Below are positions 37,534-61,482 of a stretch of 64,000 nt of DNA, piece by piece. Made by a program: the position numbers and the translations under genes. Source of the stretch: Candidatus Sumerlaeota bacterium (GTDB lineage Bacteria > Sumerlaeota > Sumerlaeia > JADFCW01); contig JADFCW010000001.1 of assembly GCA_017161705.1 (NCBI GenBank), positions 4,521-68,520 of the forward strand. The letters are read 5' to 3'. Position 1 is the stretch's first letter. Every line of letters begins with the position of its first letter. The notes below the pieces were generated by a model. The model did not search any database and was not told where the DNA came from. It saw only the letters and a list, made by a program, of their open reading frames with translations.

Positions 37534-39300
37534 CTACGGGGCGACCGGCTGCGGTACCTGCATCGGCTGCATCACGACATCGCGAATCTTGACGATCGGG
37601 TCCGTCGGCACAAACAGCGTGGCCTGCAGTTTCCCCTGCGAGGAGCCGGCAAAAAAGGTGATCGGTTCGGTTTCGAGGGTTTTCAATTTGGTGGCAATCT
37701 GCGCGAACTGCGGGCCGGCGCCTTGACCCGGAGGCGCAAACGCCTGGACAAGCTGCATCCCCCACGCACCAAGCCGGGCTGGGAACAGGTCCACATAGAG
37801 CATGCCGCCGGCCTGCGCCTGGCTGTGAAGAGGCGTGGAAACGGCTGGCTTCTTCGCCTTCAAAGCATCAATGAGCGAGTCCATGCGTTTGGCATTCAGG
37901 TCGTGAATGACAAAGTTGTCTACAGCGGCGATTTCCTGTTCCTGAAAGGTGAACATCTTCATCATGGCGGCGCCGGGTCCCGGCATGGCTTCCATGCCTG
38001 CCATGTTGACGCTCGTGGTCATTTTGTGGATGGGTGTGCCCTTATACTCGCGAACCTTGTCCTGGAACGTGATGGACATGTCCACGCCCATGCTTTTGTA
38101 AAGGGCGGTTAGGCCGAGGTCATCCATGGTTTTTTTGACGGTGCGCAGTTCTTTCAGATAGTCGCCGGCATTGGTTGTCTCATAGATGACCGCGCCGTTG
38201 AGGAGATTGTCGGCGCCTGGGGTGAGGAAATCAAGGGCTGCGGATTTTTTCATCGCCGTTGTGCGGCGGACAAATTGAGCCAGCTGGTCGGTCTTCAGCT
38301 GCGCGCTGGCGGTGGTCTTCGGCGCGGCAGCCATGACTTCATTGACTTTCGCCGCAATGAAATCAGCCCATGCCGCGCTGTCAAAACCGGCAAAGCCGAC
38401 GACCGACCCCGTGCGGGGCAGATAATTCAGCAGTGACGGATCGGAGGCGGCTGGGGAATCGAGCACCTTGGCCAGAGCCGTGTTGGGTTTCGCGCGGAGA
38501 ATCATGCCAAGCTCCGCGCCTTCTTTTTTGAGGGAAAGGTCCACACCGAGGTCTTTCATTTCTTTGATAATCCCGAGAGCGGTCTGCAGCTGCAGGCTCA
38601 ACAGTGCGGTTCCGGCGCCTGGCTGGCCCATCATTTTCTGCATTTGCTCCATGTTGCGCATCATTTCGGCCAACCCGCTCTCGATGGTCTTTTCATAACG
38701 CGCCATCAGGAGTTCGACGTTGACATAGACACTGACGTCGGAGGGAACAGGCTGGGCAAGGATGGCTTCGAGTTTGTCGAAATTGGCACGCCCCGCCGTC
38801 ATCCCCTTCTCGTTGTTGACATCGGCAACCAGGAGCGTCTTGCCTCCTTCTTTTTGATAAACGAGGCTGCCGCGCGCTTCGAGCGTGGTTTTCAGCTGGG
38901 CGGAGGCCACCGGCAACAGGGCAACGGTCGGCATTTCGCCGCCCCCTTCAGGCGCAAAAACGCAGATCATGGCCGCGCGCGTCTGGTCCACTCCCGCCAG
39001 AGTCGGGTCGCCCAGCGCGTTGCCGAGCTGCATCTTCAGCATTTCGACCCCCATGCCGGGAAGAATCGGGGCGATCATTGCATCAAGGCGCGGAAACAAC
39101 TGATCCAGCCGGTTGATCCGCACCGTGAGGGCGACGTCGGGCACGCCAGCGATAGACTGCGGGTCGCGGATCGAAAGCGCCATCGGGGCTGCGGAAACCT
39201 TAGCGGGCTGCGCGGCGCCGATTGCCGCCGCGACCACGCCTGCCGCCGCTGCCGCCAGAATCCATGCTGCGAACCGTGTTGTTCTTAGTAAACTGTACAT
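37534..39300 (-). CDS. Secreted hypothetical protein (~590 aa)
   Basis: Signal peptide (AAWILAAAAAGVVAAAIGA). Met/Gln-rich protein with no recognisable domain. Confidence 0.5.
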   Translation of the reverse strand: MYSLLRTTRFAAWILAAAAAGVVAAAIGAAQPAKVSAAPMALSIRDPQSIAGVPDVALTVRINRLDQLFPRLDAMIAPILPGMGVEMLKMQLGNALGDPTLAGVDQTRAAMICVFAPEGGGEMPTVALLPVASAQLKTTLEARGSLVYQKEGGKTLLVADVNNEKGMTAGRANFDKLEAILAQPVPSDVSVYVNVELLMARYEKTIESGLAEMMRNMEQMQKMMGQPGAGTALLSLQLQTALGIIKEMKDLGVDLSLKKEGAELGMILRAKPNTALAKVLDSPAASDPSLLNYLPRTGSVVGFAGFDSAAWADFIAAKVNEVMAAAPKTTASAQLKTDQLAQFVRRTTAMKKSAALDFLTPGADNLLNGAVIYETTNAGDYLKELRTVKKTMDDLGLTALYKSMGVDMSITFQDKVREYKGTPIHKMTTSVNMAGMEAMPGPGAAMMKMFTFQEQEIAAVDNFVIHDLNAKRMDSLIDALKAKKPAVSTPLHSQAQAGGMLYVDLFPARLGAWGMQLVQAFAPPGQGAGPQFAQIATKLKTLETEPITFFAGSSQGKLQATLFVPTDPIVKIRDVVMQPMQVPQPVAP

Positions 39301-39546
39301 ACCTTGCCTCCTTCTGATGCTTCGCTTCATCTGAGCTGGGGACTCGCACGCAGGGCGTGGAAGCGCATTCCCCCTTTGTCTGATCGAGTCAGCCGTTGGA
39401 GCACGCGACCGGTTCTACCCTTCTATGCGGCAGAGATTATCGCAGGCGAACTGGTTGAGCGGAAGGCCGCAAAAGACCTCTCACAGACAACAGAACCGTA
39501 GTCGAACGATAAAGAGGCGGTCAACTCTTTTTCTGATTTTTATTTG

Positions 39547-43903: not shown

Positions 43904-45319
43904 TTACTCCTTCTTTGCTGCTCCTTCCTTGCCCTTTGCTTTCTTATTCGCTTGCGGGCTCTGGAAACGTGGTGGGATAAGTTGGGCGTTCCAGCGGTCG
44001 AAGGCCTGGCGGAGTCGTGCGGCATCGGCGGGTCGTTTGGCGGCGAGATCGGTTTGTTCGCCGATGTCGGCGTCGAGGTCGTAGAGTTCGGGTGCGGCCG
44101 ACTCGGCTGGTTTGACCAGTTTCAGGCGGCCTTCGCGCACGGCCCATGCGGTGCCACCGCCCATGCGCCAGAACAATCGTTCGTGCGGCGGGCCGGAGCG
44201 CTCGCCTGTCAGATAGGGTAACAGATTGACGCCGTCTATGGGGCGGTCGGCGGGCAGCGGAGCACCGCCGACGGCCGCAGCGGTCGGCAGGATGTCGAGC
44301 GACGAGATGGGATGCACGAAAACCGAGCCGGCGGGTATCCAGCCGCGCCACTGGGCGGCGAAGGCCACGCGGATGCCGCCTTCATAGACCGAGCTTTTAC
44401 CGGCGCGCAGCGGGTCGTTGCGCGAGCCGTTGCTGGCAATGGTGAGGGGCCCGCCGTTGTCGCTGAGGAAGAAGATCAGCGTGTCGTTTTCGAGACCGAC
44501 GTCTCGCAGGGTGGAAAGGAGCAGACCGACGCCATCGTCCACGGCGCTGAGCATCGCCGCATAGTTCTGGCGCTTCGGGTCGGCGATGTGGCGAAAGCGG
44601 TCGGCGTATTTGTCAATGACCTGCTGGGGCGTGTGGGGCGCGTTGTAGGCGAGGTAGAGGAAGAAAGGATCGTTGCGGTGGCGGCGGACAAAGGCGGCGG
44701 CTTCGCGCGAAAGAGCATCGGTGAGGTAGTCGGTCAGGGGCGTGGGCTGGCCGTCTTTTTCGATGGGGATCAGATACTCGCGCGTTTCGCCCGGCTCTCC
44801 TGCCTTGAGATAGTCGTGGCCGCCGCCGATGAAGCCGAACTGCTCGTCGAAGCCGCGCCGCAGCGGGTGGTGAGCGGGCGTTGCGCCGAGGTGCCACTTG
44901 CCGACGATGCCCGAGACGTAGCCGGCGGGTTTGAGAACTTGCGGCAGCGTGATTTCGTCGAGCGGCAGACCGGCTGTCGGGTCGTTGGGCAAATAAGCGG
45001 GATTGTTTTCATGGCCGAACCGTTGCTGGTATCGGCCCGTCAGCAGGCCGGCGCGCGTGGGGCTGCAAAAGGGATGGGAGACATAGCCGCACTGGAAGCG
45101 GACGCCGTTGGCGGCGATCGAGTCAATGTGGGGCATGGGGATGTCCTTGCAGCCGTTCCAGCGGACGTCGGCGAAGCCGTGGTCATCGGTGAGAATGACG
45201 ATGATGTTGGGATTTCGCGTGGGGGCAGCGGCGGCCGAGGCGGCCGCGGGAAGGACAGCGGCGGCCGATGCAGCAGCAGCGCGATGGAGAAACTGGCGGC
45301 GGTTGGCTTTACAAGACAT
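43904..45319 (-). CDS. Arylsulfatase, Cys-type, with TAT signal
   Basis: RRQFLHRAAAASAAAV twin-arginine signal. Formylglycine motif CSPTRAGLLTGR. Sulfatase metal-site motifs (ILTDDHG, GKWHLG). Confidence 0.9.
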   Translation of the reverse strand: MSCKANRRQFLHRAAAASAAAVLPAAASAAAAPTRNPNIIVILTDDHGFADVRWNGCKDIPMPHIDSIAANGVRFQCGYVSHPFCSPTRAGLLTGRYQQRFGHENNPAYLPNDPTAGLPLDEITLPQVLKPAGYVSGIVGKWHLGATPAHHPLRRGFDEQFGFIGGGHDYLKAGEPGETREYLIPIEKDGQPTPLTDYLTDALSREAAAFVRRHRNDPFFLYLAYNAPHTPQQVIDKYADRFRHIADPKRQNYAAMLSAVDDGVGLLLSTLRDVGLENDTLIFFLSDNGGPLTIASNGSRNDPLRAGKSSVYEGGIRVAFAAQWRGWIPAGSVFVHPISSLDILPTAAAVGGAPLPADRPIDGVNLLPYLTGERSGPPHERLFWRMGGGTAWAVREGRLKLVKPAESAAPELYDLDADIGEQTDLAAKRPADAARLRQAFDRWNAQLIPPRFQSPQANKKAKGKEGAAKKE

Positions 45320-45713
45320 GGCAGGGCTCCCTGGGGGTGGAAAGAGTGGCGAAGTGCACAAGCGTTTTGGCGCACGAGACGCCGCCGCGCGCAGCACCTC
45401 GTTCTTTGTCCTGAGCTAAAACACAACGCTCTTGCGCGAAGAGGTGCAAGCAAAAACAAGATGCGCTCTATGCGAGGGTGCAAGCGCGATTTTCATTTTC
45501 ATTGATATTTGAATGCGGAATTTTGATGTGGGCTCGCCATCCTATGGCGATCCCCAACGACGCGCCGGGCCCCTATCACGCGGCGCGTAGGGCGGAGCCT
45601 TTGCACGGGGAGAGGGCGAGGCTTACGGTCCTGGGCTGCAAATTTGCTTGCTTGCAAGGCTGCTTTGGCGTATGCCTTTTTTCGAGATGAGCGACCGGGC
45701 GGAAAAAGACGGA

Positions 45714-48503: not shown

Positions 48504-49568
48504 ATGAATCACCCTCCTGAAATCTGCTACCTCCGTGCGATGCAGGAGATTATCCAGCGCACGGTGACGGAAAGCCTTCGCGCCAGCGGAGCGACCGCGC
48601 GCGCCCAGGTGGCCAAAGACGCGGGCGGCGACATTATCTACGCCATGGACGCCGACGTCGAAAAAGAGCTGGTAAGCTTCTGTAAAATGTGGGGCGCCCA
48701 TCAGCGCTTCATCCTTATCGCCGAAGGCGTCGGCGAAACCGGCCGCGCGGCATTCCCGCCCGACACCACGCCCGATAACGCCGAGTTCTATCTCCTCGTG
48801 GACCCGATAGACGGCACCCGCCCGCTGATGTATGACAAACGCAGTGCATGGTCGCTGGCGGCAATCGTCCCCACTCCGGACGCAAGAAGCAAGAGGTTAG
48901 ACGCCGGAGGAGAGGGAAGAAAAGACCACGAAAGGAAAGCGTGTCCCACTTTGCGCGATGCGAGTGTCGCGTGCATGACTGAGCTGCCGACGTCCAAACA
49001 ACTTTACGCCGACTGCTTGTTCACTTTGCGCGGCGAACGGCCGCGACTCGTGCGCCGGCGCCTGGACACCGGCGCGGAGGTCGAGCATCCTTATTCGCCC
49101 AGCCGCGCCGACACCATCGAGCACGGCTTCGCCATGCTCACCAATTTCTTCCCTGGCGGAAAAGAAATGGTCTCGGCCATCGAGGAAGAACTCGTACGCG
49201 AGCTGGGCGGTTTGCGCAGCGGCCGCGCGATTGTTTTCACCGATCAATATCTTTCGACCGCCGGCCAGTGGTACGAGCTGATCGTCGGCCACGATCGTTT
49301 TAACGGCGATCTGCGCGGGCGGATGATCGAGCGGGGCATTCCGGCCGGCGCGGTTCCTGCTCTTGCTGCTCATCCTTACGACTGCTGTGTTGAACTGCTT
49401 GCGCGCGAGGCCGGCGTCATCATCACGGATCTCGAAGGCCGTCCTTTTGACGCTCCGCTCGACACGGAGTCGCCCGTCTCATGGCTGGCGTATGCCAACG
49501 AGGCGCTGCGGCAAAAGATCGAGCCTGTTCTGCAGCGTCTGCTGCGAAAGCACGGGCTGATTTCTTGA
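48504..49568 (+). CDS. Inositol monophosphatase/FBPase-like family protein
   Basis: IMPase metal-binding motif LLVDPIDGT, within a divergent, long (354 aa) protein. Confidence 0.7.
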   Translation: MNHPPEICYLRAMQEIIQRTVTESLRASGATARAQVAKDAGGDIIYAMDADVEKELVSFCKMWGAHQRFILIAEGVGETGRAAFPPDTTPDNAEFYLLVDPIDGTRPLMYDKRSAWSLAAIVPTPDARSKRLDAGGEGRKDHERKACPTLRDASVACMTELPTSKQLYADCLFTLRGERPRLVRRRLDTGAEVEHPYSPSRADTIEHGFAMLTNFFPGGKEMVSAIEEELVRELGGLRSGRAIVFTDQYLSTAGQWYELIVGHDRFNGDLRGRMIERGIPAGAVPALAAHPYDCCVELLAREAGVIITDLEGRPFDAPLDTESPVSWLAYANEALRQKIEPVLQRLLRKHGLIS

Positions 49569-50547: not shown

Positions 50548-50904
50548 ATGGCCAAAGGCAAAACCACCGCCAGTCGAACCATTCGCGTCGAGAATCCCCT
50601 CGGCCTGCATGCCCGTCCGTGCAGCCTGCTGGTTCAGACTGCCAGCCATTTTCCCGACACGGAGGTCTGGGTAACCAACGGCCGCCAGCGGGTGAATGGC
50701 AAAAGCATCATGGGGGTTTTAGGCCTGGCGGCTGCCGCGGGCACGGAACTGCTCATCGAGACCAAGGGGCGCAATGCCGAACAGGCGCTCGAAGCCATCT
50801 GCCGCGTGATCGCCGCGCTGGAAACGTTCGAGCAATATCAGACGCGCGAGGAAACGCTGGATGCATGGCGCAAGCTGCTTGCCGAAGTCACATCCAGGGA
50901 GTAG
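50548..50904 (+). CDS. ptsH: Phosphocarrier protein HPr with ~30-aa C-terminal extension
   Basis: Active-site His15 context NPLGLHARP and a regulatory Ser46-like context (VNGKSIMGVLGL). 118 aa versus the usual ~88. Confidence 0.85.
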   Translation: MAKGKTTASRTIRVENPLGLHARPCSLLVQTASHFPDTEVWVTNGRQRVNGKSIMGVLGLAAAAGTELLIETKGRNAEQALEAICRVIAALETFEQYQTREETLDAWRKLLAEVTSRE

Positions 50905-50911
50905 GGTCTTT

Positions 50912-52774
50912 ATGCCGTCCGCCGTACGCTCCGCTTCGTCCTCGCGCCAGATCGTGCTGAAGGGTATCCCGGCCTCGCCGGGGATCGCGATTGGGCGCGC
51001 GTATGTGTTCGACCCGCGCCAGCCGGCGGTAGCCGCGCTGGAGATTGCCGAGCGAAATGTCGAGCGCGAGGTCGAGCGGTTTCTCAAGGCGATCGAACGG
51101 ACGCGGCGGCAGATTCAGAAACTCCGCCAGCAGGTGGCGCGCCAGATCAACGAGCGGCAGGCGGCCATTTTCGACACTCACCTGATGATGCTGGATGATC
51201 CTTCGTTTCAGGAGGAAACCGTCCGGCGGATTCGCGCCGAGCGACTGAACGCCGAATATCTGCTTCAGTCGCAGGTGCAGAAGCAGGCTTCGCGTTTCGA
51301 GAAAATCCAGGACGAGATGTTTGCCGCCCGCGCCGCTGATCTGACGGATGTGGCTCAGCGCGTGCTCGCCAACCTCATGACGCACGAGCGTCCCGCCCTG
51401 TCCGCGTTGACCAAGCCGGCCATTGTTGTCGCACGCGACCTGGGGCCTTCCGACACCGCGCAGATGAACAAGGAGACCGTCATCGGATTTGCGACCGACC
51501 GCGGGGGGCCCACCTCGCACACGGCCATCATGGCCAAGGCTTTGGAAATTCCTGCTGTCGTCGCTACGGGCGAACTGACGCAACATGTCCGGTCGGGCGA
51601 TTTGCTGATTCTCGACGGCGTCAACGGCTACGTCATTCTGCGCCCAACGCACGACACACTGCGGGACTATGAAAAGTCGCAGGCGGCGATCGAGAAGTTC
51701 GAGCAGGAACTGGCAAAGAATCGCCACCTGCCGGTGGAAACGCTCGACGGCCACGCGGTTGAAGTCGGGGCCAACATCGAATTGCCGGAGGAGGTTCCGC
51801 ACGTCATCGAGCACGGCGCCCAGAGCGTCGGGTTGTTTCGGACGGAGTTTCTGTTTCTGAACCGCGACCGTCTGCCGCGCGAGGACGAACTGTTCGAGAT
51901 GTATCGGTCGGTGATAGCGGCACTGCATCCCCGCACGGTGATCTTCCGCACGCTGGACCTGGGGGGCGACAAGTTCGCCAAGACGGTTCCCCTGTCGAAA
52001 GAGCTGAATCCCTTTTTGGGGCTGCGCGCCATTCGCCTGTGTCTGCATTATCCGGAATTATTTCGGCGGCAGTTGCGGGCCATCTTTCGCGCCAGCATCT
52101 ATGGCCACATCAAGATCATGTTCCCCATGGTTTCGAGTCTCGAAGAAGTGAGAGCCGCGAAAACCATTTGCGAGGAAATCCAGCGCGAGCTTCGCCAACA
52201 TCGCATTGCATATGATCGCGACATCGAGATCGGCATCATGATAGAAACGCCGTCGGCGGCTGTGGCGGCCGATCTGCTGGCCCGAGAGGTGGACTTTTTT
52301 TCGATTGGCACGAACGACTTGATCCAATACACGCTGGCCGTGGACCGCGTCAACGAAACCGTTGCCCATCTCTATGAACCGCTTCATCCGTCGGTCTTGC
52401 GCCTGATTCATAATGTGATCGAGTCGGGGCACAAACAGGGCATTTGGGTGGGCGTCTGCGGCGAGTTGGCCGGCGATCCCACGATGGCCGCGATTTTGGT
52501 GGGCATGGGCATTGATGAATTGAGCATGGGCCCGGTGCGCATTCCCGAAATCAAGCAGGTGATTCGCGGCCTGCGGCTGAGCGATGTCCAGGCGATGGCG
52601 CGCGACTTGCTGAAACAAGCCTCCGCCCGGGAGGTCCGCGAAGTCGTGCGCCGCTATACCGAGCGGCTGCCGATTCGCCCCAAATGGCCGACACCGCCGC
52701 TGTTGAAACCGATTCGTGCGAGGGGAAGCGCGGCGGGCATTGTCCGCCGCCTGGGCGAACCGGTAGAGGTGTGA
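50912..52774 (+). CDS. ptsI: Phosphoenolpyruvate-protein phosphotransferase (PTS Enzyme I)
   Basis: GGPTSHTAIMAKALEIPAVV (phospho-His site), PEP-utilising TIM barrel (RTLDLGGDK, IGTNDLIQYT). Confidence 0.95.
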   Translation: MPSAVRSASSSRQIVLKGIPASPGIAIGRAYVFDPRQPAVAALEIAERNVEREVERFLKAIERTRRQIQKLRQQVARQINERQAAIFDTHLMMLDDPSFQEETVRRIRAERLNAEYLLQSQVQKQASRFEKIQDEMFAARAADLTDVAQRVLANLMTHERPALSALTKPAIVVARDLGPSDTAQMNKETVIGFATDRGGPTSHTAIMAKALEIPAVVATGELTQHVRSGDLLILDGVNGYVILRPTHDTLRDYEKSQAAIEKFEQELAKNRHLPVETLDGHAVEVGANIELPEEVPHVIEHGAQSVGLFRTEFLFLNRDRLPREDELFEMYRSVIAALHPRTVIFRTLDLGGDKFAKTVPLSKELNPFLGLRAIRLCLHYPELFRRQLRAIFRASIYGHIKIMFPMVSSLEEVRAAKTICEEIQRELRQHRIAYDRDIEIGIMIETPSAAVAADLLAREVDFFSIGTNDLIQYTLAVDRVNETVAHLYEPLHPSVLRLIHNVIESGHKQGIWVGVCGELAGDPTMAAILVGMGIDELSMGPVRIPEIKQVIRGLRLSDVQAMARDLLKQASAREVREVVRRYTERLPIRPKWPTPPLLKPIRARGSAAGIVRRLGEPVEV

Positions 52775-52940: not shown

Positions 52941-54803
52941 ATGTCAAATTCCGACGTTCGTCAAAAGCGACTGGGCCGGTTACTCGACCGCCTCGCAGCG
53001 CGTGTGTTGATTTGCGACGGCGCTGTCGGCACCATGCTTTACAACAAGGGCGTCTATATTAACCAGAACTTCGAGGCGCTCAATCTCTCCAAACCTAGCC
53101 TCGTTCAGGAAGTCCATGCGGAATACGTCAAAGCGGGCGCCGACATCATCGAGACCAACACATTTGGCGCTAACCGCCTGAAACTCGAAGCGGCAGGATT
53201 GGCCGACAAAGCCGCCGACATCAATCGCGCGGGCGCGCGCCTGGCACGCGAAGCGGCGGGCGACTGCGCTTTTGTCGCCGGTTCGATCGGCCCGTCGGGC
53301 GAATCGCGCTGGCGAGGCACACCCGTGGACCGAAAACATTTGGGCGCCGTGTTCGGCGAGCAGGCGGCCGCGTTAGCTGAAGGCGGTGTGGACTTGTTTA
53401 TTCTCGAAACGTTTGCCGACCTTGCCGAACTGCTTGCTGCTATCGAAGCCGTGCGCGCCGTAAGCGGTTTGCCCATCATCGCCCAGGCTCGGTTCGCCGA
53501 CGCCGAGCGCACTGATCTTGGCTATACGGTCGAAGAGGTGACAAAGGCGCTCGACCGCGCACCGGCCGAGGTTGTGGGATTCAACTGCGGGATCGGTCCG
53601 GCTACCGCGCTGGAGGTGCTCGAGCGAATGCGCGCGCTGACGACCAAGCCGATTTGCGTTCAGCCCAACGCGGGTCTGCCCCAGGAGTTCGACAACCGTT
53701 CGATCTATCTCAGCACGCCGGAATATATGGCCGTCTATGCAGGGCGGATGATTCAAAAAGGCGCGGCGATAGTCGGCGGTTGCTGCGGAACAACGCCGGC
53801 ACACATTCGCCAGATTCGTGCGCAGGCCAAGGCGCTTCAGCCGGCCTCGACGATACAAGCCGCTTTGTTGGATGAAATGAAAACGGGCGAGGTTGCGCGG
53901 CCCGCACCGGCCGAGACGCAGTCGCGCTTTGCAGCGAAATTGCGCGCCGGCACATTTGTCGTCAGCGTCGAGATGGACCCGCCCATCGGGAGCGATCCGA
54001 CGAAAACGCTGGCCTCGGCCAAAGCCCTGGTGGGAACGCGCGTGGACGCGATCAATATCGCCGACGGCCCGCGCGCCATGGCGCGCATGAGTCCTTTGGC
54101 GCTGGCCCTTCGCGTGCGCGACGAACTCGGCATCGAGCCGATCGTCCATTATTGCTGTCGCGACCGAAACATTCTCGCCATACAGGCCGATCTGCTGGGC
54201 GCCCATTCGCTCGGCATCCACAACATGCTGGCCATCACGGGCGATCCGCCGCGGCTGGGCAACTATCCGGAAGCGGCGGCGGTTTTCGACGTGGATTCGA
54301 TCGGTCTGGTGCGGATCGTGCGGAAGCTGAATGCGGGGATGGATCTGGCGGGAAGCCCGATCGGTCCGCCGACGAAGTTTTTCGTAGGCGTTGGGGCCAA
54401 CCCGGGCGCCATTGACCTGGACAGGGAGATTTTCCGCCTCGAACAAAAAGTCGCCGCCGGCGCGGAATACGTCCTGACGCAGCCGGTGTATGACGTGCGG
54501 CTGTTCGAACAATTCATCCGGCGGACGGCTCACTTGCGCGTGCCGGTGCTGGTGGGGATTCTGCCGCTGGTCAGTTCGCGCAACGCGGAATTTTTGCACA
54601 AGGAAATTCCCGGCATGCAGATTCCCGACCCCATCCGCGAACGCATGCGAAAGGCGGGGTCTGGGCCCGACGCGCGAAAAGAGGGGCTGGCGATTGCGCG
54701 CGAGGCCCTGCGCGAATGCGCGCCGATGGCCCAGGGCGTCTATATCATGCCGCCGTTCAATCGCGCCGACCTTGCACTCGAAGTGCTGGACGTTTTGGGT
54801 TGA
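52941..54803 (+). CDS. yitJ: Bifunctional homocysteine S-methyltransferase / 5,10-methylene-THF reductase (YitJ type)
   Basis: N-terminal Hcy-binding (S-methyl_trans) domain with Zn-ligand Cys (CGIGP, GGCCGTTP). C-terminal MTHFR domain. Confidence 0.85.
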   Translation: MSNSDVRQKRLGRLLDRLAARVLICDGAVGTMLYNKGVYINQNFEALNLSKPSLVQEVHAEYVKAGADIIETNTFGANRLKLEAAGLADKAADINRAGARLAREAAGDCAFVAGSIGPSGESRWRGTPVDRKHLGAVFGEQAAALAEGGVDLFILETFADLAELLAAIEAVRAVSGLPIIAQARFADAERTDLGYTVEEVTKALDRAPAEVVGFNCGIGPATALEVLERMRALTTKPICVQPNAGLPQEFDNRSIYLSTPEYMAVYAGRMIQKGAAIVGGCCGTTPAHIRQIRAQAKALQPASTIQAALLDEMKTGEVARPAPAETQSRFAAKLRAGTFVVSVEMDPPIGSDPTKTLASAKALVGTRVDAINIADGPRAMARMSPLALALRVRDELGIEPIVHYCCRDRNILAIQADLLGAHSLGIHNMLAITGDPPRLGNYPEAAAVFDVDSIGLVRIVRKLNAGMDLAGSPIGPPTKFFVGVGANPGAIDLDREIFRLEQKVAAGAEYVLTQPVYDVRLFEQFIRRTAHLRVPVLVGILPLVSSRNAEFLHKEIPGMQIPDPIRERMRKAGSGPDARKEGLAIAREALRECAPMAQGVYIMPPFNRADLALEVLDVLG

Positions 54804-55189: not shown

Positions 55190-56926
55190 GTGAGCGTTGT
55201 AAGTGGAGAGCAGACGATGGACACGCTATTGGACAGCCAGGTTGAAGATAGGGCAGCGACGGAATCTTCGCAGCAGGCCGATGAGCCGTACGTCGGTCTT
55301 GCGCTCAAGTGGCGGCCGAAGACCTTCGAGGAGATCGTCGGCCAGCGGCAGGTGAGCGAGACGCTGAAGAACGCCATGGCGCAGGGGCGGATTGCGCAAG
55401 CGTATCTTTTCTGCGGACCGCGTGGAGTGGGCAAGACCTCGACCGCCCGGATTCTCGCGCGCGCGATCAATTGCGAGAAAGGCCCGACGCCGGAGCCGTG
55501 CGGCAAGTGCATGTTCTGCCGCGCGATTTCCGCCGGCAGCGACATGGATGTGGTCGAGATTGACGGCGCCTCGAATAACAAGGTGGACGACGTGCGCGAG
55601 CTGCGCGAGGCGGTTAACTTCACGCCGTTCGCCGCCCGCTACAAGGTCTATATCATTGACGAAGTGCACATGCTCTCGACCGGCGCGTTCAACGCTCTTC
55701 TCAAGACGCTGGAAGAGCCGCCCGAGCGCGTGAAGTTTATTTTCGCCACCACCGAGCCGCACCGCGTGCCGGCCACCATCCGGTCGCGCTGCCAGGTTTG
55801 CAATTTCTCCCAGATCACCGAGGCGGACATTGTCGGACGGCTCGAGACCATTCTCGCGCGCGAGCCCTCGATTACCGTCGCCCCCGAGGAAAAGCGCGCC
55901 GTGCTCGAAACCATCGCCCACTATGCCGAAGGCTCGATGCGCGACGCCCTGGTGGCGTTCGATCAAGTGGCCGCGCTGGGATTGGGCACCATCACGCTGA
56001 AGGATGTTCAGGATTTGCTGGGCCTGGTGGACAGCGATGCCTGTCTCGCTCTGCTCGCCGGTCTGTGCACGGGCAGGACGGGCGAGTTGCTGCAGAAGGT
56101 GGATGAGCTGGTGAATGCGGGGCGCGACCTCGAACGCGTGACACGCCAGTTGGTGAAACTGGTGCGCGATGGACTGATCCTCAAAGCCGGAGGCGCGGCC
56201 GACTTAGTGCGGCGTCCTGAGAGCGAGCGGCGGCGCCTGGCGGACATCGTCGCGGGGGTCTCTCTGGCACAAATGGTCAATATCAGCCAGGTGCTGGTCG
56301 CGCTCGAAGAACAAATGCGAAGCGGCGTGCCGGTTCGCTTTGCACTTGAATTGGCCTTTATCAAACTGACCGCTTTAGGCGGAGCGACCGACCTTGGCGA
56401 GTTGATCAAAAAAATCGAGGCGATGAGCCGAGGCGGCGCTGCGGAAACAGCGGGCGGGAGTCCCTTGTCCCGCCCGGCAGCGGCTCCCGCGACACCGCCG
56501 GCGATGCGGGTGGCAGAGCACCCGACCCCCGCGCCGGCGCGGGCGGCCGTGCTGGCGGAAAGGTCGGGAGCATCCGTTGCCCCGCCGCGTGTCGTGCCCT
56601 CTGCCGTCCACATTCCGCCGACGCCCGCTGCAACGGTCCACGCCGACAAAACGTTGGATGGGAACGGCGGGAGCGCGGCGGCGGGCTCGATGCGCGTGGG
56701 CGAATCGGTCGCCGAGTTCGAGACCGACGCGGTGCTATCCAACGGAATCGGACTGGACGACGAGCCCGGTGCGTCCAACGGCAGAGCGGGTCTGGGGGCG
56801 CCGGCCGACCCGCGCGCGTGGCTGCGCGAGGCGTTCAGCCGCGATCCGTCATTGGCGGAGGCAGTCGAGGCGATCAAACAAATGTTTTCGGCGCGCGAAG
56901 TCGCGCTGGATGGAATTCCGTTGTAA
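55190..56926 (+). CDS. dnaX: DNA polymerase III subunit gamma/tau
   Basis: AAA+ clamp-loader motifs (GPRGVGKTSTARILA, zinc module CGKCMFC, DEVHML, SRC). The track start is GTG; the first ATG lies 27 nt downstream. Ala/Pro-rich tau linker. Confidence 0.9.
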   Translation: MSVVSGEQTMDTLLDSQVEDRAATESSQQADEPYVGLALKWRPKTFEEIVGQRQVSETLKNAMAQGRIAQAYLFCGPRGVGKTSTARILARAINCEKGPTPEPCGKCMFCRAISAGSDMDVVEIDGASNNKVDDVRELREAVNFTPFAARYKVYIIDEVHMLSTGAFNALLKTLEEPPERVKFIFATTEPHRVPATIRSRCQVCNFSQITEADIVGRLETILAREPSITVAPEEKRAVLETIAHYAEGSMRDALVAFDQVAALGLGTITLKDVQDLLGLVDSDACLALLAGLCTGRTGELLQKVDELVNAGRDLERVTRQLVKLVRDGLILKAGGAADLVRRPESERRRLADIVAGVSLAQMVNISQVLVALEEQMRSGVPVRFALELAFIKLTALGGATDLGELIKKIEAMSRGGAAETAGGSPLSRPAAAPATPPAMRVAEHPTPAPARAAVLAERSGASVAPPRVVPSAVHIPPTPAATVHADKTLDGNGGSAAAGSMRVGESVAEFETDAVLSNGIGLDDEPGASNGRAGLGAPADPRAWLREAFSRDPSLAEAVEAIKQMFSAREVALDGIPL

Positions 56927-56985
56927 AATCAGGCGCCGGAATTCGAACAGGAGTCGCGCGATATCAATGGAAAGGCAATCAAACC

Positions 56986-57297
56986 ATGTTTGACCTCAAG
57001 CAACTTCAGAAAATGCAAAAAGACTTGCAGGAACAGCTCGAGGCGATGCAGCGGGAGGCGGAACGCCAGACGGTGGAGGCGTCGTCGGGCGGCGGGGCTG
57101 TGCGGGTTGTGGCCAACGGCGCGCAGCAAATCGTCGAGATCAAAATCCGCCCCGATGCGGTGGACCCCGACGATATCGAGATGCTCGAGGACCTTGTCAT
57201 CGCCGCCGTCAACAGCGCCATGGAAAAGTCCAAGGAACTCACGCAGAAAGAAATGGGCAAGCTGACCGGCGGTATCAAACTGCCGATGATGTTTTGA
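56986..57297 (+). CDS. ybaB: Nucleoid-associated protein YbaB/EbfC
   Basis: MFDLKQLQKMQKDLQEQLEAMQ...GGGAVRV...IKI start. Canonical position after dnaX. Confidence 0.9.
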   Translation: MFDLKQLQKMQKDLQEQLEAMQREAERQTVEASSGGGAVRVVANGAQQIVEIKIRPDAVDPDDIEMLEDLVIAAVNSAMEKSKELTQKEMGKLTGGIKLPMMF

Positions 57298-57354: not shown

Positions 57355-57987
57355 ATGAGCGAGCAGCGGATATGGTTTCCGGTGTGGCTGGAGTTGTGCG
57401 GGCTGCCGGAGTGGCTCAACACCAAGGTTCGGCAGGGGGCATGGGGCGTGTTCAAGAAGCTGGTCGAGCTCGACTGCGAGGCAAATTTTCAGCCGGGGCA
57501 CTTCGAGATCCCGCTCAGCGATCTGGCGCGGCGCACCGGTCTGCCGCCCGCCACCGTGGCCCGCATTCTCCACGGTTTGCGCCGCAAGCGCCTGATCTCG
57601 TGCTTTGTCCCTGAGCACCCCGACGAAAACATCCTATGCAAAATCGCTGTCCCGCTTCCCCTGCCGGAACCGCGCGATGTCGTGCTGGGCCGGCTGCCGC
57701 GCGCCCTCCAGCGCGAGGAACTTCGCTACCTCGACCAGATGGCCCTGTCCGAGGAACAGGAAGCCCAATTACGAGAAATTGTGGACGAGTATCTAAATAA
57801 AGTGAGCCAGAAAATGAACGCGATAATCCTCGATGAGTTGCGTCTGATCGCCGCACGGTATCCGCGCGAACGAATCCGCCGGCATTTTGCCCGCGCGCGC
57901 GCGGCCGGCTTCGACAGCCTCTCCTGGATCTCGCGCGAAATGGCCCGGGAAGAACTCCATGAGCAAAAAACCGTCAAACCCAAATGA
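57355..57987 (+). CDS. DnaD-like / winged-helix replication-initiation-type protein (tentative)
   Basis: Central wHTH (LSDLARRTGLPPATVARILHGLRRKRLI). C-terminal region resembles the DnaD/DnaB(Bs) DDBH2 pattern (NAIILDELRLIAARYPRERIRRHFARARAAGFDSLSWISREM). Confidence 0.4.
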   Translation: MSEQRIWFPVWLELCGLPEWLNTKVRQGAWGVFKKLVELDCEANFQPGHFEIPLSDLARRTGLPPATVARILHGLRRKRLISCFVPEHPDENILCKIAVPLPLPEPRDVVLGRLPRALQREELRYLDQMALSEEQEAQLREIVDEYLNKVSQKMNAIILDELRLIAARYPRERIRRHFARARAAGFDSLSWISREMAREELHEQKTVKPK

Positions 57988-58672
57988 GCCGTTGCCGGAC
58001 CTCGGCACAGCCCTCGGCGACAAGCTGCAGTTTTCCGACGACCTGCAGGCCCGCATGGTCGCCCAGCTGCGGCTGCGCGAATCGGGCATCCCGCCCAAGT
58101 ATCTCGGCAAGGATTTTGAGAATTTTCTTGCCCGCGACAAAGTGCGGAGGGACCTTCTGGCCGCCGCCCAAGGGTACGTCGAAAGTTTCAACCTCACAGA
58201 CAAGACCAAATATTTCGGCCTTTTTTTCCAGGCCCCAACCGGCGCCGGGAAAACGCATCTGGCCACGGCGATCCTGAAAAACGTGATTTTGAAAGGCTAT
58301 TCCGGCGTGTATTGCAACGTCCCGCGCCTTCTCGAACTTCTCCGCGAACTCATGTACGACCGCGCCCATTACGACGAGCGCGGTTTTCTCGCCCGATGCG
58401 AAACTGCCGATCTCGTTGTTCTCGACGATATCGGCACGGAAACGGTCAGCGGCTGGGTCCAGGACCGCCTCTATCTGCTGGTCAATCGGCGCTATGAGGA
58501 CATGGGGCGCACGATTGTGACGACCAACTGCGACGAGGCCACGCTGCGCGAGCGCGTGGGCGAGCGTGTGGAATCGCGACTGATCGAAATGTGCAACAAC
58601 CGGTGGGTATTTCCGCAGGAGGACTATCGAATGAAAATGTGGGGCGCCCCGCCGACGGCCTCGCGAAAATAG
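57959..58672 (+). CDS. DnaC/DnaI/IstB-family AAA+ ATPase (helicase-loader-like)
   Basis: Walker A QAPTGAGKTHLATAI, Walker B LVVLDDIGTE, sensor TIVTTN. Overall DnaC architecture. Confidence 0.8.
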   Translation: MSKKPSNPNEPLPDLGTALGDKLQFSDDLQARMVAQLRLRESGIPPKYLGKDFENFLARDKVRRDLLAAAQGYVESFNLTDKTKYFGLFFQAPTGAGKTHLATAILKNVILKGYSGVYCNVPRLLELLRELMYDRAHYDERGFLARCETADLVVLDDIGTETVSGWVQDRLYLLVNRRYEDMGRTIVTTNCDEATLRERVGERVESRLIEMCNNRWVFPQEDYRMKMWGAPPTASRK

Positions 58673-58752: not shown

Positions 58753-60150
58753 TCAGCCGCCTTTGGTCCGCGGTTTGTCTATTCCGTATTCTTCCATTTT
58801 TCGATAAAGGGTCTTGCGGCTCAAGCCAAGGAGGCGGGCCGTTCTGGCGCGATTGTCGCCGGTTTGCTGCAGCGTGGCCAGAATGATCTCGCGCTGGGCG
58901 TCGTCGAGGCTGGTGCCGATGCGCAGGCGGATTTCCGGCGCCGGGGCATTTAGAGCCGCCGAGGGAGAAGCCGCCCGCACGTCGGCCGGCAGATGCTCCG
59001 GGCCGATCTCGGTCTCCGAGGGTCCGGCCATGATCACCGCTCCCTCGATGGCGTTGCGCAGCTGGCGCACATTTCCCGGCCAGGGATAATTCTGCAGGAT
59101 CGCCATGGCCGCCGGGTGGATTCGGACAAGGTTCTTGCCGTTGGCCTGGGAGAATTCGGCCAGAAAGGCTTGGGCGAGCAGAGGAATATCCTCGCGGCGC
59201 TCGCGCAGGGGCGGCAATACAATGCTGATCACTTTCAAGCGGTAGTAGAGGTCGGAGCGGAACGAGCCGGCGGCAACCATTTGTTCGAGGTCGCGGTTGC
59301 TGGCGGCGATAATGCGCACATCCGAGTGGATGATCTCGGTTCCGCCGACGCGCTCGAAGCGCCCGGTTTCGATGACGCGGAGAAGTTTGACCTGAAATTC
59401 GAGAGAGGTTTCGCTGATCTCGTCGAGAAACAGTGTTCCGCCATCGGCCAGCTCGAACCGCCCCGGTTTCTGTTTCACCGCCGAGGTGAACGCGCCGCGT
59501 TCATGGCCGAACAATTCGCTTTCGAGCAAGGTGGGGGCCAGCGCGCCGCAATTGACGGGGACAAACGGTCCCCGGCCCACGCGGTCGGAATGTTGGTGAA
59601 TGGCCCGCGCGATCAACTCCTTACCCGTTCCGCTTTCGCCCGTCAGAAGAACGGTCGCCCGTGTCGGGGCGACCTGGCGGACCTGCTGAAAAATCCGTTG
59701 CATGGCCGGCGACTGGCCGATGATGCTCTCGAAACCATAGCGGGCGCTCAGGGCCTGCCGCAGAGCGAGGTTCTCTTCGCGCAGACTCTTTTCCGTCAGC
59801 ACGCGGTCCACAAGGGCCGACAGTTCGTCAATGTCTATGGGCTTGGTCAGGTAGTCATAGGCGCCCTGTTTGAGCGCATCGCGCGCACTGGCGATGGTGC
59901 CGTGGCCCGTGAGGATCACGACTTCGGTGCCGGGCGATTCCTGTTTGACGCGCTTGAGAAGTTCCAGCCCGTCGAGACGGGGCATTTTCAGATCGGCGAG
60001 CACCAGATCAATGGGTTCGGCGCGAGTGATCTGAAGCGCTTCCTCGCCGTCAGCCGCCATACGAATGTCCAACGACCGGTTCTGCAGGGCCAGCCGCAGG
60101 CCCTCGCGCGTGTTTTTTTCATCGTCCACAATCAAGATTCGCCGTCGCAC
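58753..60150 (-). CDS. Sigma-54-dependent response regulator (NtrC family)
   Basis: REC domain (phospho-Asp in LVLADLKMP). Sigma-54 AAA+ domain with GESGTGKE and GAFTSA motifs. C-terminal Fis-type HTH. Confidence 0.9.
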   Translation of the reverse strand: MRRRILIVDDEKNTREGLRLALQNRSLDIRMAADGEEALQITRAEPIDLVLADLKMPRLDGLELLKRVKQESPGTEVVILTGHGTIASARDALKQGAYDYLTKPIDIDELSALVDRVLTEKSLREENLALRQALSARYGFESIIGQSPAMQRIFQQVRQVAPTRATVLLTGESGTGKELIARAIHQHSDRVGRGPFVPVNCGALAPTLLESELFGHERGAFTSAVKQKPGRFELADGGTLFLDEISETSLEFQVKLLRVIETGRFERVGGTEIIHSDVRIIAASNRDLEQMVAAGSFRSDLYYRLKVISIVLPPLRERREDIPLLAQAFLAEFSQANGKNLVRIHPAAMAILQNYPWPGNVRQLRNAIEGAVIMAGPSETEIGPEHLPADVRAASPSAALNAPAPEIRLRIGTSLDDAQREIILATLQQTGDNRARTARLLGLSRKTLYRKMEEYGIDKPRTKGG

Positions 60151-60182
60151 GGCAGAACCCCTTTGCTTTTGAGGGAATTTGT

Positions 60183-60214
60183 CGGGCGCGTCGGACGTAC
60201 CGGACGGGTCCGAC
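60183..60214. repeat. 9-bp-periodic pentamer repeat array E (4 units)
   Basis: CGGGCgcgTCGGACgtaCCGGACgggTCCGAC, in the HK-RR spacer. Confidence 0.5.
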
Positions 60215-60237
60215 GTGCACAGTCGTTTGGGGGTGCA

Positions 60238-61482
60238 TTACGCTTTGGGCAATAAGCGCACCGGCCGCTGGCTCAGCGGCAACCGCATGCGCACGCGCGT
60301 TCCTCGCCCGACCTCGCTTTCGATTTCCACTTTGCCGTCATGTTCGCGCAGGATTCGATAGACATTCATCAGGCCCAGACCTGTTCCCGAGAACTTTGTG
60401 GTATAATAGGGCTCGAACACCTTGCCCAGGTTCTCCTGAGCAATCCCGCAACCCGTGTCCACGACCTCGATCAATGCATCGTCGCCGTCTATGCGGCAGG
60501 TGACCGCGATGGAGTCCTTTTTTGCCGGTTCTGTTCCGTCTCCGGCTTTGCGCTTCTCCAGAATGGCCTCGATGGCGTTGCGAATCACATTGACGAGGGC
60601 GCGCTCGATTTGGTCGCTGTCCAGAAGGATCGGCGGCAAGTCGGCATCGCAAACGACCTCGAGAGCGATGTCGGCCTGCCGGCATTCGGGGAGGAACATC
60701 CTAGCAACTTTTTCCACCAATTCGCGCAACGCCACTTCTGCTTTTTCCGGGTCGGTGGGCCGCACGGCGCCGAGAAACTCATCCACGATCCGTGTCATCC
60801 GACGCGTTTCTTCGAGAATCACCCGCAGCGAGGCTTCGAGCCGGTCCAGTTCGACGGTCTGGCCGCCATTGCGGACGCCGGCGATCATCCGATTGGTCAG
60901 CTGGGCATGGATTTGAAGCGAGTTCAGCGGGTTCTTCAATTCATGGGCGATGCCGGCGGTCAACGTGGCCAGCGAAGCGATGCGTTCGGCCTGGCGCTCG
61001 CGCAGTTCCGCGCGGCGGGTTTCCGTCACATCGCGCAGGACAAACACCCGCGAGAACAGCGAGCCGTCCTGACTCTCGACCGGATAGCTGGTCAGCTGCA
61101 GCGTGATGCCCGCAAAACAGGCCGGCCGGAAATCCTGTTCGACCCGCTGGGGTTTGGAAAAATCTGTTCTGGCGACAAATTGAAAGATTTCCGGCACCGA
61201 AATATGCGCGAGAAGCGACTCGCCGGTCATGCGACGCCGCGGGGGAATACCCAGCCAGCGTCGCGCCCGCGCATTGCAGGTCAGAATCCGCAGCTGCGAA
61301 TCGGTGACGACCAGGCCTTCCTGCAAATTCTCGAAAATGACCTCGAGCAATTGCTTTTGGGCGAGGTACTGCTGGAGGGCCGCTTCGATCAGGCGCGGGT
61401 CGGCCCGCCCGATACGTTCGAGCACGCGGCCGGCAAATCCGCTTTGTTTTTTGGTTTCCGGCGACATAAAATTCATTCCCAC
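60238..61482 (-). CDS. Cytoplasmic PAS-domain sensor histidine kinase
   Basis: PAS fold, HisKA H-box (GIAHELKNPL), HATPase_c N/G boxes (NAIEA, DTGCGI, GTGLGL). No TM segments. Confidence 0.85.
   Translation of the reverse strand: MGMNFMSPETKKQSGFAGRVLERIGRADPRLIEAALQQYLAQKQLLEVIFENLQEGLVVTDSQLRILTCNARARRWLGIPPRRRMTGESLLAHISVPEIFQFVARTDFSKPQRVEQDFRPACFAGITLQLTSYPVESQDGSLFSRVFVLRDVTETRRAELRERQAERIASLATLTAGIAHELKNPLNSLQIHAQLTNRMIAGVRNGGQTVELDRLEASLRVILEETRRMTRIVDEFLGAVRPTDPEKAEVALRELVEKVARMFLPECRQADIALEVVCDADLPPILLDSDQIERALVNVIRNAIEAILEKRKAGDGTEPAKKDSIAVTCRIDGDDALIEVVDTGCGIAQENLGKVFEPYYTTKFSGTGLGLMNVYRILREHDGKVEIESEVGRGTRVRMRLPLSQRPVRLLPKA

Follow-up and report, generated by a model that had tools for sequence, protein, structure and literature searches.

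Two overlapping genes of Candidatus Sumerlaeota, here called ORF1 and ORF2, probably represent a resident, vertically inherited helicase-loading module of this phylum, which descends from a phage module composed of an initiator or replisome organiser and a DnaC-like loader; we put the probability of this reading at roughly 60%. The genes lie in a stretch of 64,000 nucleotides (nt) from contig JADFCW010000001.1 (assembly GCA_017161705.1, positions 4,521 to 68,520 of the forward strand), which is called the window in the following and whose own numbering is used unless another locus is named. ORF1 extends on the plus strand from an ATG at 57355 to a TGA at 57987 and encodes 210 amino acids (aa) listed by NCBI as 'hypothetical protein'. 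ORF2 runs on the same strand from an ATG at 57959 to a stop codon ending at 58672 and encodes an 'ATP-binding protein' of 237 aa, so that the genes share the 29 nt from 57959 to 57987. The same coordinates and overlap had been given in an initial annotation made by a model from the sequence alone. We regard as established the reality of the genes, their family assignments, a remote homology of ORF1 to DnaD, the phylum-wide conservation in non-mobile surroundings, purifying selection, the co-divergence of both genes and their affinity to phages.

Distribution, inheritance and selection

The ORF1 alignment was scanned over one genome per GTDB species and identified relatives in 16 species loci, reaching down to about 31% identity. 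Fourteen of these loci come from Candidatus Sumerlaeota/Sumerlaeia (formerly BRC1) and two from entries named 'uncultured bacterium'. The closest genomes all belong to the Sumerlaeota, hence the initial assignment of the window to a Planctomycete- or Verrucomicrobia-like genome was mistaken. ORF2 is present in 10 of the 16 ORF1-bearing loci and follows directly downstream of ORF1 in nine (tblastn, E≤1e-5); direct succession was also seen in the metagenomic loci L002-L004, L024 and L026, while in L017 ORF2 is situated 1.3 kilobases (kb) upstream on the other strand. Where the two genes adjoin they usually overlap, by 26-44 nt. The closest locus (L005, 90% identity) displays the same order dnaX-ybaB-ORF1-ORF2-ntrC, and the start position of ORF2 is conserved, with a GTG in L005 and L004 where the window has the ATG at 57959.

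The neighbours of the pair vary by lineage and are always housekeeping genes, namely dnaX-ybaB, pheA/recA (recA in L002), rnpA-yidD or a histidine kinase/NtrC pair. For example, the ORF1 orthologue in the Sumerlaeia metagenome-assembled genome ACE_SUM1 (L016, 5267-6666) is found directly after rnpA and yidD, members of the rpmH-rnpA-yidD-yidC cluster that is usually located near oriC, and in L001 and L012 ORF1 comes after a histidine kinase/NtrC pair. In ACE_SUM1, a gene for a protein with a prepilin-type N-terminus (GFTLIELL...) follows ORF1 in place of the AAA+ gene. The initial annotation had stressed that the pair occupies the slot in which recR commonly follows dnaX-ybaB. The pair does sit there in the window, but its place varies within the phylum, and therefore the slot after ybaB is a lineage-specific arrangement and not a functional replacement of recR. 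A tblastn search of limited sensitivity with an E. coli RecR sequence detected no recR, neither in the window nor in the other loci retrieved.

Both genes are under strong purifying selection, with ratios of nonsynonymous to synonymous substitution rates (dN/dS) of 0.06-0.15 (0.09-0.15 for ORF1, 0.06-0.14 for ORF2). The pairwise identities of ORF1 and ORF2 co-vary over 15 loci (Pearson r=0.80; Mantel test, 0/2000). The phylogeny of the AAA+ protein, which had been proposed as a check, was calculated as an unbootstrapped neighbour-joining tree without support values; in this tree all ORF2 copies from ORF1-bearing loci form one clade, which is sister to phage-module sequences. A resident dna[CI] in the sense of Brezellec et al. 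(2016) is recognised by clade-wide presence, congruence with the species relationships and a location outside mobile elements; the pair agrees with this through the ORF1 relatives in 16 species loci, the single ORF2 clade and the housekeeping flanks.

These findings also bear on the possibility that the pair is merely a decaying remnant of a prophage, an integrative element or an IS21-like transposon that came to lie behind ybaB. It is true that ORF2 belongs to the Pfam family IstB_IS21, that its nearest relatives outside the phylum are phage genes, and that distant ORF1 relatives lie beside an integrase or in a phage-like contig. However, within 20 kb on either side of the pair we found no phage or insertion sequence (IS) genes, no IstA, integrase or transposase, no tRNA and no att-like or other flanking repeats, in agreement with what the initial annotation had noted for the flanks. 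This wider context, which it had suggested to inspect for a prophage or IS, holds genes for pyruvate:ferredoxin oxidoreductase, a sulfatase, a radical S-adenosylmethionine enzyme and an FGGY kinase as well as ptsI, panB and nadC, and the guanine plus cytosine content of the pair (~0.60) equals that of its surroundings. Moreover, the pair family is spread over at least 16 Sumerlaeota species with differing housekeeping neighbourhoods, the ATPase motifs are intact at the low dN/dS values given above, and the IstB equivalog score of ORF2 is far below its cut-off. The selection, the single ORF2 clade, the co-variation of ORF1 and ORF2 and the housekeeping flanks exclude a remnant for all practical purposes, and the IS21 and prophage versions of this idea were both rejected on grounds of context, conservation and selection, being largely refuted. 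Thus, from the two origins considered initially, the phage-derived loader fits the data, whereas phylum-wide spread, housekeeping contexts, purifying selection and co-divergence contradict an integrated-element remnant.

The AAA+ protein and its divergent partner

By its sequence, ORF2 is an intact member of the DnaC/DnaI/IstB clade of AAA+ proteins, and it is not an orthologue of any named protein, because all NCBIfam scores stay under the curated cut-offs. It clears the gathering cut-off of Pfam IstB_IS21 (PF01695; 45.9 vs 24.1 bits, E 6.5e-12) and also weakly reaches Bac_DnaA. The top cellular NCBIfam model is PRK08116 (126 bits, 1.3e-36), and lower scores were obtained with PRK06835 (90 bits), the DnaC equivalog NF005931 (79.9 bits, 2e-22; cut-off 357), the IstB equivalog (64.4 bits, 1e-17; cut-off 200) and the DnaI equivalog NF006505 (57 bits, 2e-15; cut-off 228). 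The best profile anywhere is phrog_50, 'DnaC-like helicase loader' (5e-55, 188 bits). Among PDB entries E. coli DnaC ranks first (1.8e-17), before Aquifex DnaC, DnaI and IstB (1e-4), and residues 33-229 of ORF2 align nearly full length to residues 51-242 of E. coli DnaC. The complete set of DnaC-family motifs reported initially is indeed intact: the Walker A motif or P-loop APTGAGKT (residues 92-99; 58232-58255, plus strand), which aligns to the DnaC P-loop, the Walker B motif LVVLDD (residues 152-157; 58412-58429, plus strand), and the segment from sensor I (TTN, residues 188-190) through R207 in VESRL (58520-58579, plus strand), with R207 aligned to the arginine finger of DnaC in 'GERVMDRM'. 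Among 35 relatives reaching down to 41% identity, these motifs and the R207 position show at least 95% conservation. A Cys/His cluster as in the zinc-binding N-domain of DnaI is absent from the N-terminal 60 residues, and the first 32 residues have no detectable similarity to the helicase-binding domain of DnaC. Judged by these similarities, ORF2 is a putative replicative helicase loader.

The small family to which ORF1 belongs is not represented by a Pfam model, and the direct Pfam matches of ORF1 are restricted to generic winged-helix models (HTH_IclR with 1e-6, more weakly HTH_Crp_2 and MarR_2). The AlphaFold2 model (predicted local distance difference test, pLDDT, 80; predicted template modelling score 0.69) shows a pair of short helices at the N-terminus, then a winged helix, and a C-terminal domain of four helices. 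The hallmark of the family is the N-terminal motif W-L-x-x-S-G-L-P-x-x-L in residues 10-24 (57382-57426, plus strand; alignments A1 and A2), in which W11, G16, L17 and P18 are nearly invariant and which is modelled as helices 10-15 and 20-24 preceding the winged helix. The winged helix-turn-helix (HTH) domain of residues 29-97 (57439-57645, plus strand), supported by Pfam HTH_IclR and by the model, is predicted to consist of helix 29-43, strand 49-53, helices 54-61 and 65-77, and strands 81-84 and 92-97. The C-terminal domain of residues 133-207 (57751-57975, plus strand) appears DDBH2-like and is followed by a short basic tail.

In fold searches, the whole ORF1 model matched best to the N-domains of RepA_N plasmid initiators in the PDB (4pql, 5kbj, 4pt7, 4pta), with weak E values of 0.04-0.3, and numerous MarR structures were among the matches. 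Against viral models (BFVD) the top match was a 'Replisome organizer' (E 2.8e-5, probability 1.0), and a 'Replication initiator' protein and the N-terminal domain of lambda GpO were further top matches. A model of the C-terminal domain only (pLDDT 84) gave three Foldseek matches in the PDB, of which only the DnaD-like C-terminal domain 2zc2_A superposes well (template modelling scores 0.57/0.66, root-mean-square deviation 2.6 Å, 66 columns), at an E value of 5.2 that is not significant.

A word-indexed search of 5.8e9 proteins yielded 27 ORF1 homologues, and an exhaustive profile search of 1.84e9 cluster representatives yielded 120 matches. In the latter, the ORF1 profile reaches the protein P0242 at E 2.7e-5 with an alignment that spans both domains. 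Its sequence identifies P0242 as a genuine DnaD-type protein, since it hits Pfam DnaB_2 with an E value of 6.6e-9 (35.8 bits; cut-off 22) and, in phmmer, B. subtilis DnaD (8ojj) with 1.5e-8. The ORF1 family profile (A2, 69 sequences) aligns to P0242 in hhalign with 97.2% probability (E 3e-11, 176 columns), and the C-terminal helices of ORF1 are in register with the DnaB_2 region. Furthermore, the ORF1 orthologue P0025 matches phrog_186, 'DnaD-like helicase loader', at 3e-5, and the distant relatives P0218 and P0238 match phrog_186 as well as the replication initiator families PHROG 270 and 678. Because the P0242 profile link, the fold matches and the PHROG matches point in the same direction, ORF1 may be regarded as a very divergent DnaD-like or replisome-organiser-like protein, an assignment that is supported indirectly through remote homology and modelling and does not amount to membership in the Pfam DnaD families. 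The initially claimed resemblance of the ORF1 C-terminus to the DnaD/DDBH2 domain hence survives as remote homology via P0242 and as the 2zc2 superposition, without a direct Pfam match; likewise, in the profile comparison suggested at that time, ORF2 passed IstB_IS21 and ORF1 left DnaD/DnaB_2 unmatched.

Together with the missing branch support in the ORF2 tree and the insignificant E value of the 2zc2 superposition, several points weigh against a DnaD-like loader module. Neither ORF1 nor any of 19 family members matched Pfam DnaB_2 (PF07261) or DnaD_N (PF21984) at E≤1, an NCBIfam search of ORF1 and its family for DnaD/DnaB_2 gave nothing, and the PDB sequence-profile search with ORF1 gave no match, DnaD included. 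The direct hhalign comparison of A2 with B. subtilis DnaD reached a non-significant 4% probability, so the DnaD link hangs on the single intermediate P0242, which originates from a contig of 977 base pairs; a homologue search with P0242 retrieved only itself, hence no profile could be made on the DnaD side. The DDBH2 motif YxxxIxxxW reads W191-x3-M195-x3-E in ORF1, with the first two positions conservatively kept and the final W lost. With regard to the pair, ORF2 was not found in the available sequence downstream of ORF1 in 6 of the 16 species loci, and one member of the AAA+ family (P0062) stands alone among metabolic genes, hence either protein may also act without the other. The distribution given above describes the Sumerlaeota loci found to carry ORF1.

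The winged helix of ORF1 raises another question, namely whether ORF1 is an ordinary transcription regulator of the MarR/IclR type and ORF2 a non-replicative AAA+ protein involved in regulation or defence. The direct Pfam hits, the many MarR structures among the fold matches and the NtrC/histidine kinase genes adjacent to the pair in the window and in L001 would agree with such roles. On the other hand, ORF1 has no effector-binding or MarR dimerisation domain, its C-terminal domain and full architecture match DnaD-like and replisome-organiser proteins, and the alignments of ORF2 to DnaC and to phage loaders run from end to end. PADLOC produced marginal P-loop matches only (E 6e-4 or weaker), on which grounds a defence role was rejected. 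We consider a regulator pair very unlikely, and a helicase-loading module continues to be the better description of the locus.

Phage affinity and possible role in replication

The nearest ORF2 relatives outside the Sumerlaeota share 37-38% identity and are found in phage replication regions. One of these (L029) carries RecT, Dam, a cI-like repressor and a phage metallopeptidase, and its AAA+ gene shares 41 nt with an unannotated gene for 316 aa. The other one (L031) contains cI/Cro-like genes and an HTH_36 protein gene whose overlap with the AAA+ gene is 11 nt long; a gene for a DnaB helicase and numerous small ORFs come next. In hhalign, the ORF1 family gave a weak match limited to the HTH region with the partner in L031 (27.6%) and none with the partner in L029, and a scan of IMG/VR with the ORF1 alignment gave no close relatives. 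ORF1 combines similarity in fold and profile to phage replisome organisers or O-like initiators with the pairing to a loader gene that is typical of them. Because relatives of ORF2 and of ORF1 occur in phage contexts, the architecture and ancestry of the pair are best understood as those of a phage initiator-plus-loader module.

Some distant relatives of ORF1 deserve mention on their own. P0213, which belongs to the ORF1 family, is encoded on a short contig of phage-like character (L027, 840-2814; L028, 128-2212), with an endolysin-like PG_binding_1 protein upstream and genes of PHROG 1368/1748 downstream; no DnaC-like gene was found in its available sequence. P0213 is possibly a living phage relative of the Sumerlaeota ORF1 gene. 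In addition, the proteins P0214-P0238, which comprise 210-295 aa, share only the N-terminal domain with ORF1, including the motif PRWLxxSGLPxxLN, while their C-termini are unrelated and rich in lysine and glutamate. This set (loci L021, 2643-4980, and L022) matches PHROG 270, 678 and 186, and the gene of P0238 has an excisionase-like HTH_17 gene and a tyrosine integrase gene as neighbours. The set appears to be a family of initiators or regulators of integrative elements that had not been described.

If the pair acts in helicase loading, ORF2 would bind the replicative DnaB hexamer via its short N-terminal segment in an ATP-dependent, DnaC-like manner and would deliver it onto single-stranded DNA. 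ORF1 would serve as a DnaD-like adaptor, in which the winged-helix domain with its WLxxSGLPxxL extension, the helical C-terminal domain and the basic tail might bind DNA and/or DnaA or a restart protein, and would thereby bring ORF2 and its bound helicase to the unwound origin or to stalled forks. Translational coupling is suggested by the conserved overlap of 26-44 nt and could provide matched amounts of both proteins for a stoichiometric complex. We infer the interaction with DnaB, the role at oriC or in restart, and a replacement of DciA from the relationships described above.

It might also be possible that the pair is resident in the Sumerlaeota but accessory, as a second loader for restart, repair or a co-resident replicon beside an ancestral DciA at oriC. 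DnaD, DnaB and DnaI of B. subtilis also act in the PriA restart primosome (cited in PMC11087808), the neighbourhoods dnaX-ybaB (normally with recR) and recA (L002) have a repair flavour, and the Sumerlaeota may possess DciA. Vibrionaceae genomes can indeed hold a prophage dnaC alongside dciA (PMC11087808). However, dciA and a resident dna[CI] were co-maintained in none of 1,426 genomes (Brezellec et al., PMC5109545), and vertical conservation throughout a phylum under strong constraint is typical of core functions. An accessory role is in our view unlikely, though more probable than the regulator hypothesis.

A resident module of phage origin fits a published pattern: at least seven domestications of phage dnaC/dnaI-type genes are known from five of the 26 phyla in a survey, dciA being replaced in every case (PMC5109545), and in Vibrionaceae dciA gave way to viral loaders on more than 20 occasions (PMC11087808). 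The Sumerlaeota were not covered in these two studies, and in the literature and supplements searched for helicase loaders of Sumerlaeota/BRC1 we found nothing, including no paper that names the Sumerlaeota together with DnaC. The Sumerlaeota might have replaced an ancestral DciA by co-domesticating the whole phage module, with the loader and the DnaD-like adaptor both becoming essential initiation factors, a tentative extension to which we give somewhat less than even odds. If it holds true, DnaD-dependent helicase loading would have an independent, non-Firmicute origin, and with ORF1 a new DnaD-like family would be founded, for which the WLxxSGLPxxL motif is diagnostic. Helicase loading outside the E. 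coli and B. subtilis models is still being mapped, the known factors being DciA, phage-derived DnaC/DnaI, DopE and VdhL, and the present locus is a candidate for a loader acquisition in an uncultured phylum outside the earlier surveys. Resident phage-derived loaders of the DnaC type were known already; what the locus adds is a Sumerlaeota-specific partner family, DnaD-like but highly divergent, that is co-retained with the loader. It is unusual that the phage initiator-like partner was apparently retained with the loader, as DnaD was with DnaI in Firmicutes. Once confirmed, the locus would provide a second independent case for studying why some loaders need a DnaD-type adaptor, and names for two Sumerlaeota genes annotated as 'hypothetical protein' and 'ATP-binding protein'.

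Local gene order and comparison with known systems

Upstream of the pair, the plus strand carries ptsI (50861-52774), a gene for a fused S-methyltransferase/methylenetetrahydrofolate reductase (MTHFR; 52941-54803), dnaX for the clamp-loader tau/gamma subunit (55190-56926; Pfam DNA_pol3_delta2 2.3e-46, DNA_pol3_gamma3 6e-16) and ybaB/ebfC for a nucleoid-associated protein (about 56983-57297; Pfam YbaB_DNA_bd 6.3e-31). The Pfam matches confirm dnaX and ybaB as the upstream genes named initially. The fusion protein of 620 aa joins a homocysteine methyltransferase domain to MTHFR, and its gene has the same position in L004; L004 and L005 show synteny for dnaX. A long Pro/Ala-rich low-complexity stretch unlike typical tau domains IV-V makes up the C-terminal third of DnaX (56300-56926, plus strand). 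ybaB directly precedes ORF1 with a gap of 57 nt, in which no sigma-70-like promoter was found, and an intrinsic-terminator-like hairpin at 57267-57285 (plus strand), the sole one within 54.7-58.9 kb, lies in the last ybaB codons. In view of this hairpin and the missing promoter, ORF1-ORF2 may or may not be co-transcribed with dnaX-ybaB. The promoter and terminator search around the pair gave otherwise nothing beyond chance, DnaA boxes occurred there at chance level without clusters, and no iteron-like repeats were found.

Downstream of ORF2, on the opposite strand and convergent with the pair, follow the genes of an NtrC-type regulator and a histidine kinase, and beyond them a zinc-ribbon gene, panB and nadC. 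An NtrC-type sigma-54 regulator adjoins ORF1 also in distant Sumerlaeota (window, 58753-61482, minus strand; L001, 4290-7771), accompanied by a PAS histidine kinase in the window and L001. In the window it converges with the pair; in L001 and L012 (NtrC 44% identical) it immediately precedes ORF1 and has the same direction, and a partial NtrC-like match exists downstream in L015 (9677-10030). This proximity may reflect a conserved neighbourhood or chance. Three long ORFs of the window had no Pfam match at 1e-5: those at 37534-39330 (minus strand, 598 aa) and 48504-49568 (plus strand, 354 aa) may be real genes, while that at 44312-45505 (plus strand, 397 aa) overlaps an opposite-strand sulfatase gene and may be spurious.

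Among the known systems, DnaC of E. coli and Aquifex aeolicus resembles ORF2 in the AAA+ clade, in Walker A/B, sensor I and the arginine-finger position, and in the short non-zinc N-terminal segment before the ATPase. ORF2 is nevertheless not a DnaC orthologue (80 bits vs 357), and its first 32 residues are dissimilar to the helicase-binding domain. To our knowledge, E. coli DnaC also differs from ORF2 in having no DnaD-like partner gene. A phage origin, as proposed here for ORF2, is likewise assumed for DnaC (PMC5109545).

The DnaD-DnaB-DnaI system of B. subtilis resembles the pair in having an AAA+ loader, and its adaptor consists of an N-terminal winged helix, a helical C-domain of the DDBH2 type and a basic tail, an architecture that ORF1, remotely homologous through P0242, may reproduce. 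It differs in that ORF1 fails Pfam DnaB_2/DnaD_N and keeps YxxxIxxxW only in part, with W191 at the Y position, no second DDBH2 protein equivalent to B. subtilis DnaB was seen, ORF2 has no zinc-binding N-domain or cysteine clusters (57 vs 228 bits for DnaI), and the Sumerlaeota are unrelated to Firmicutes.

Phage modules with an overlapping winged-helix initiator-like gene followed by a loader gene (PHROG 186/270/678 plus PHROG 50; functional analogues are SPP1 G38P-G39P and lambda O-P) are similar in arrangement, as exemplified by the 41-nt overlap in L029 and the 11-nt overlap in L031, there with dnaB following, and also in that phrog_50 is the best ORF2 profile and replisome organisers are the best ORF1 folds. 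In contrast to them, the Sumerlaeota pair has no phage genes, helicase gene or iterons nearby and is vertically inherited across the phylum, and the similarity of ORF1 to the L029/L031 partners is weak and confined to the HTH region. IstB of IS21 falls into the same Pfam family PF01695 as ORF2, but neither the window flanks nor any related locus contain IstA or a transposase, the equivalog score is 64 vs 200, the PDB match to IstB is 1e-4 compared with 1.8e-17 for DnaC, and ORF2 is single-copy in housekeeping contexts. Finally, the RepA_N initiators of staphylococcal multiresistance plasmids (4pql, 5kbj, 4pt7, 4pta) provide the top PDB folds for the ORF1 winged helix, with probabilities of 0.75-0.99 and template modelling scores of about 0.43-0.49 on the target at weak E values of 0.04-0.3. 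Their N-domains are described as DnaD-N-like. Unlike these plasmid proteins, with which it has no sequence similarity, ORF1 is encoded on the chromosome with no iterons nearby.

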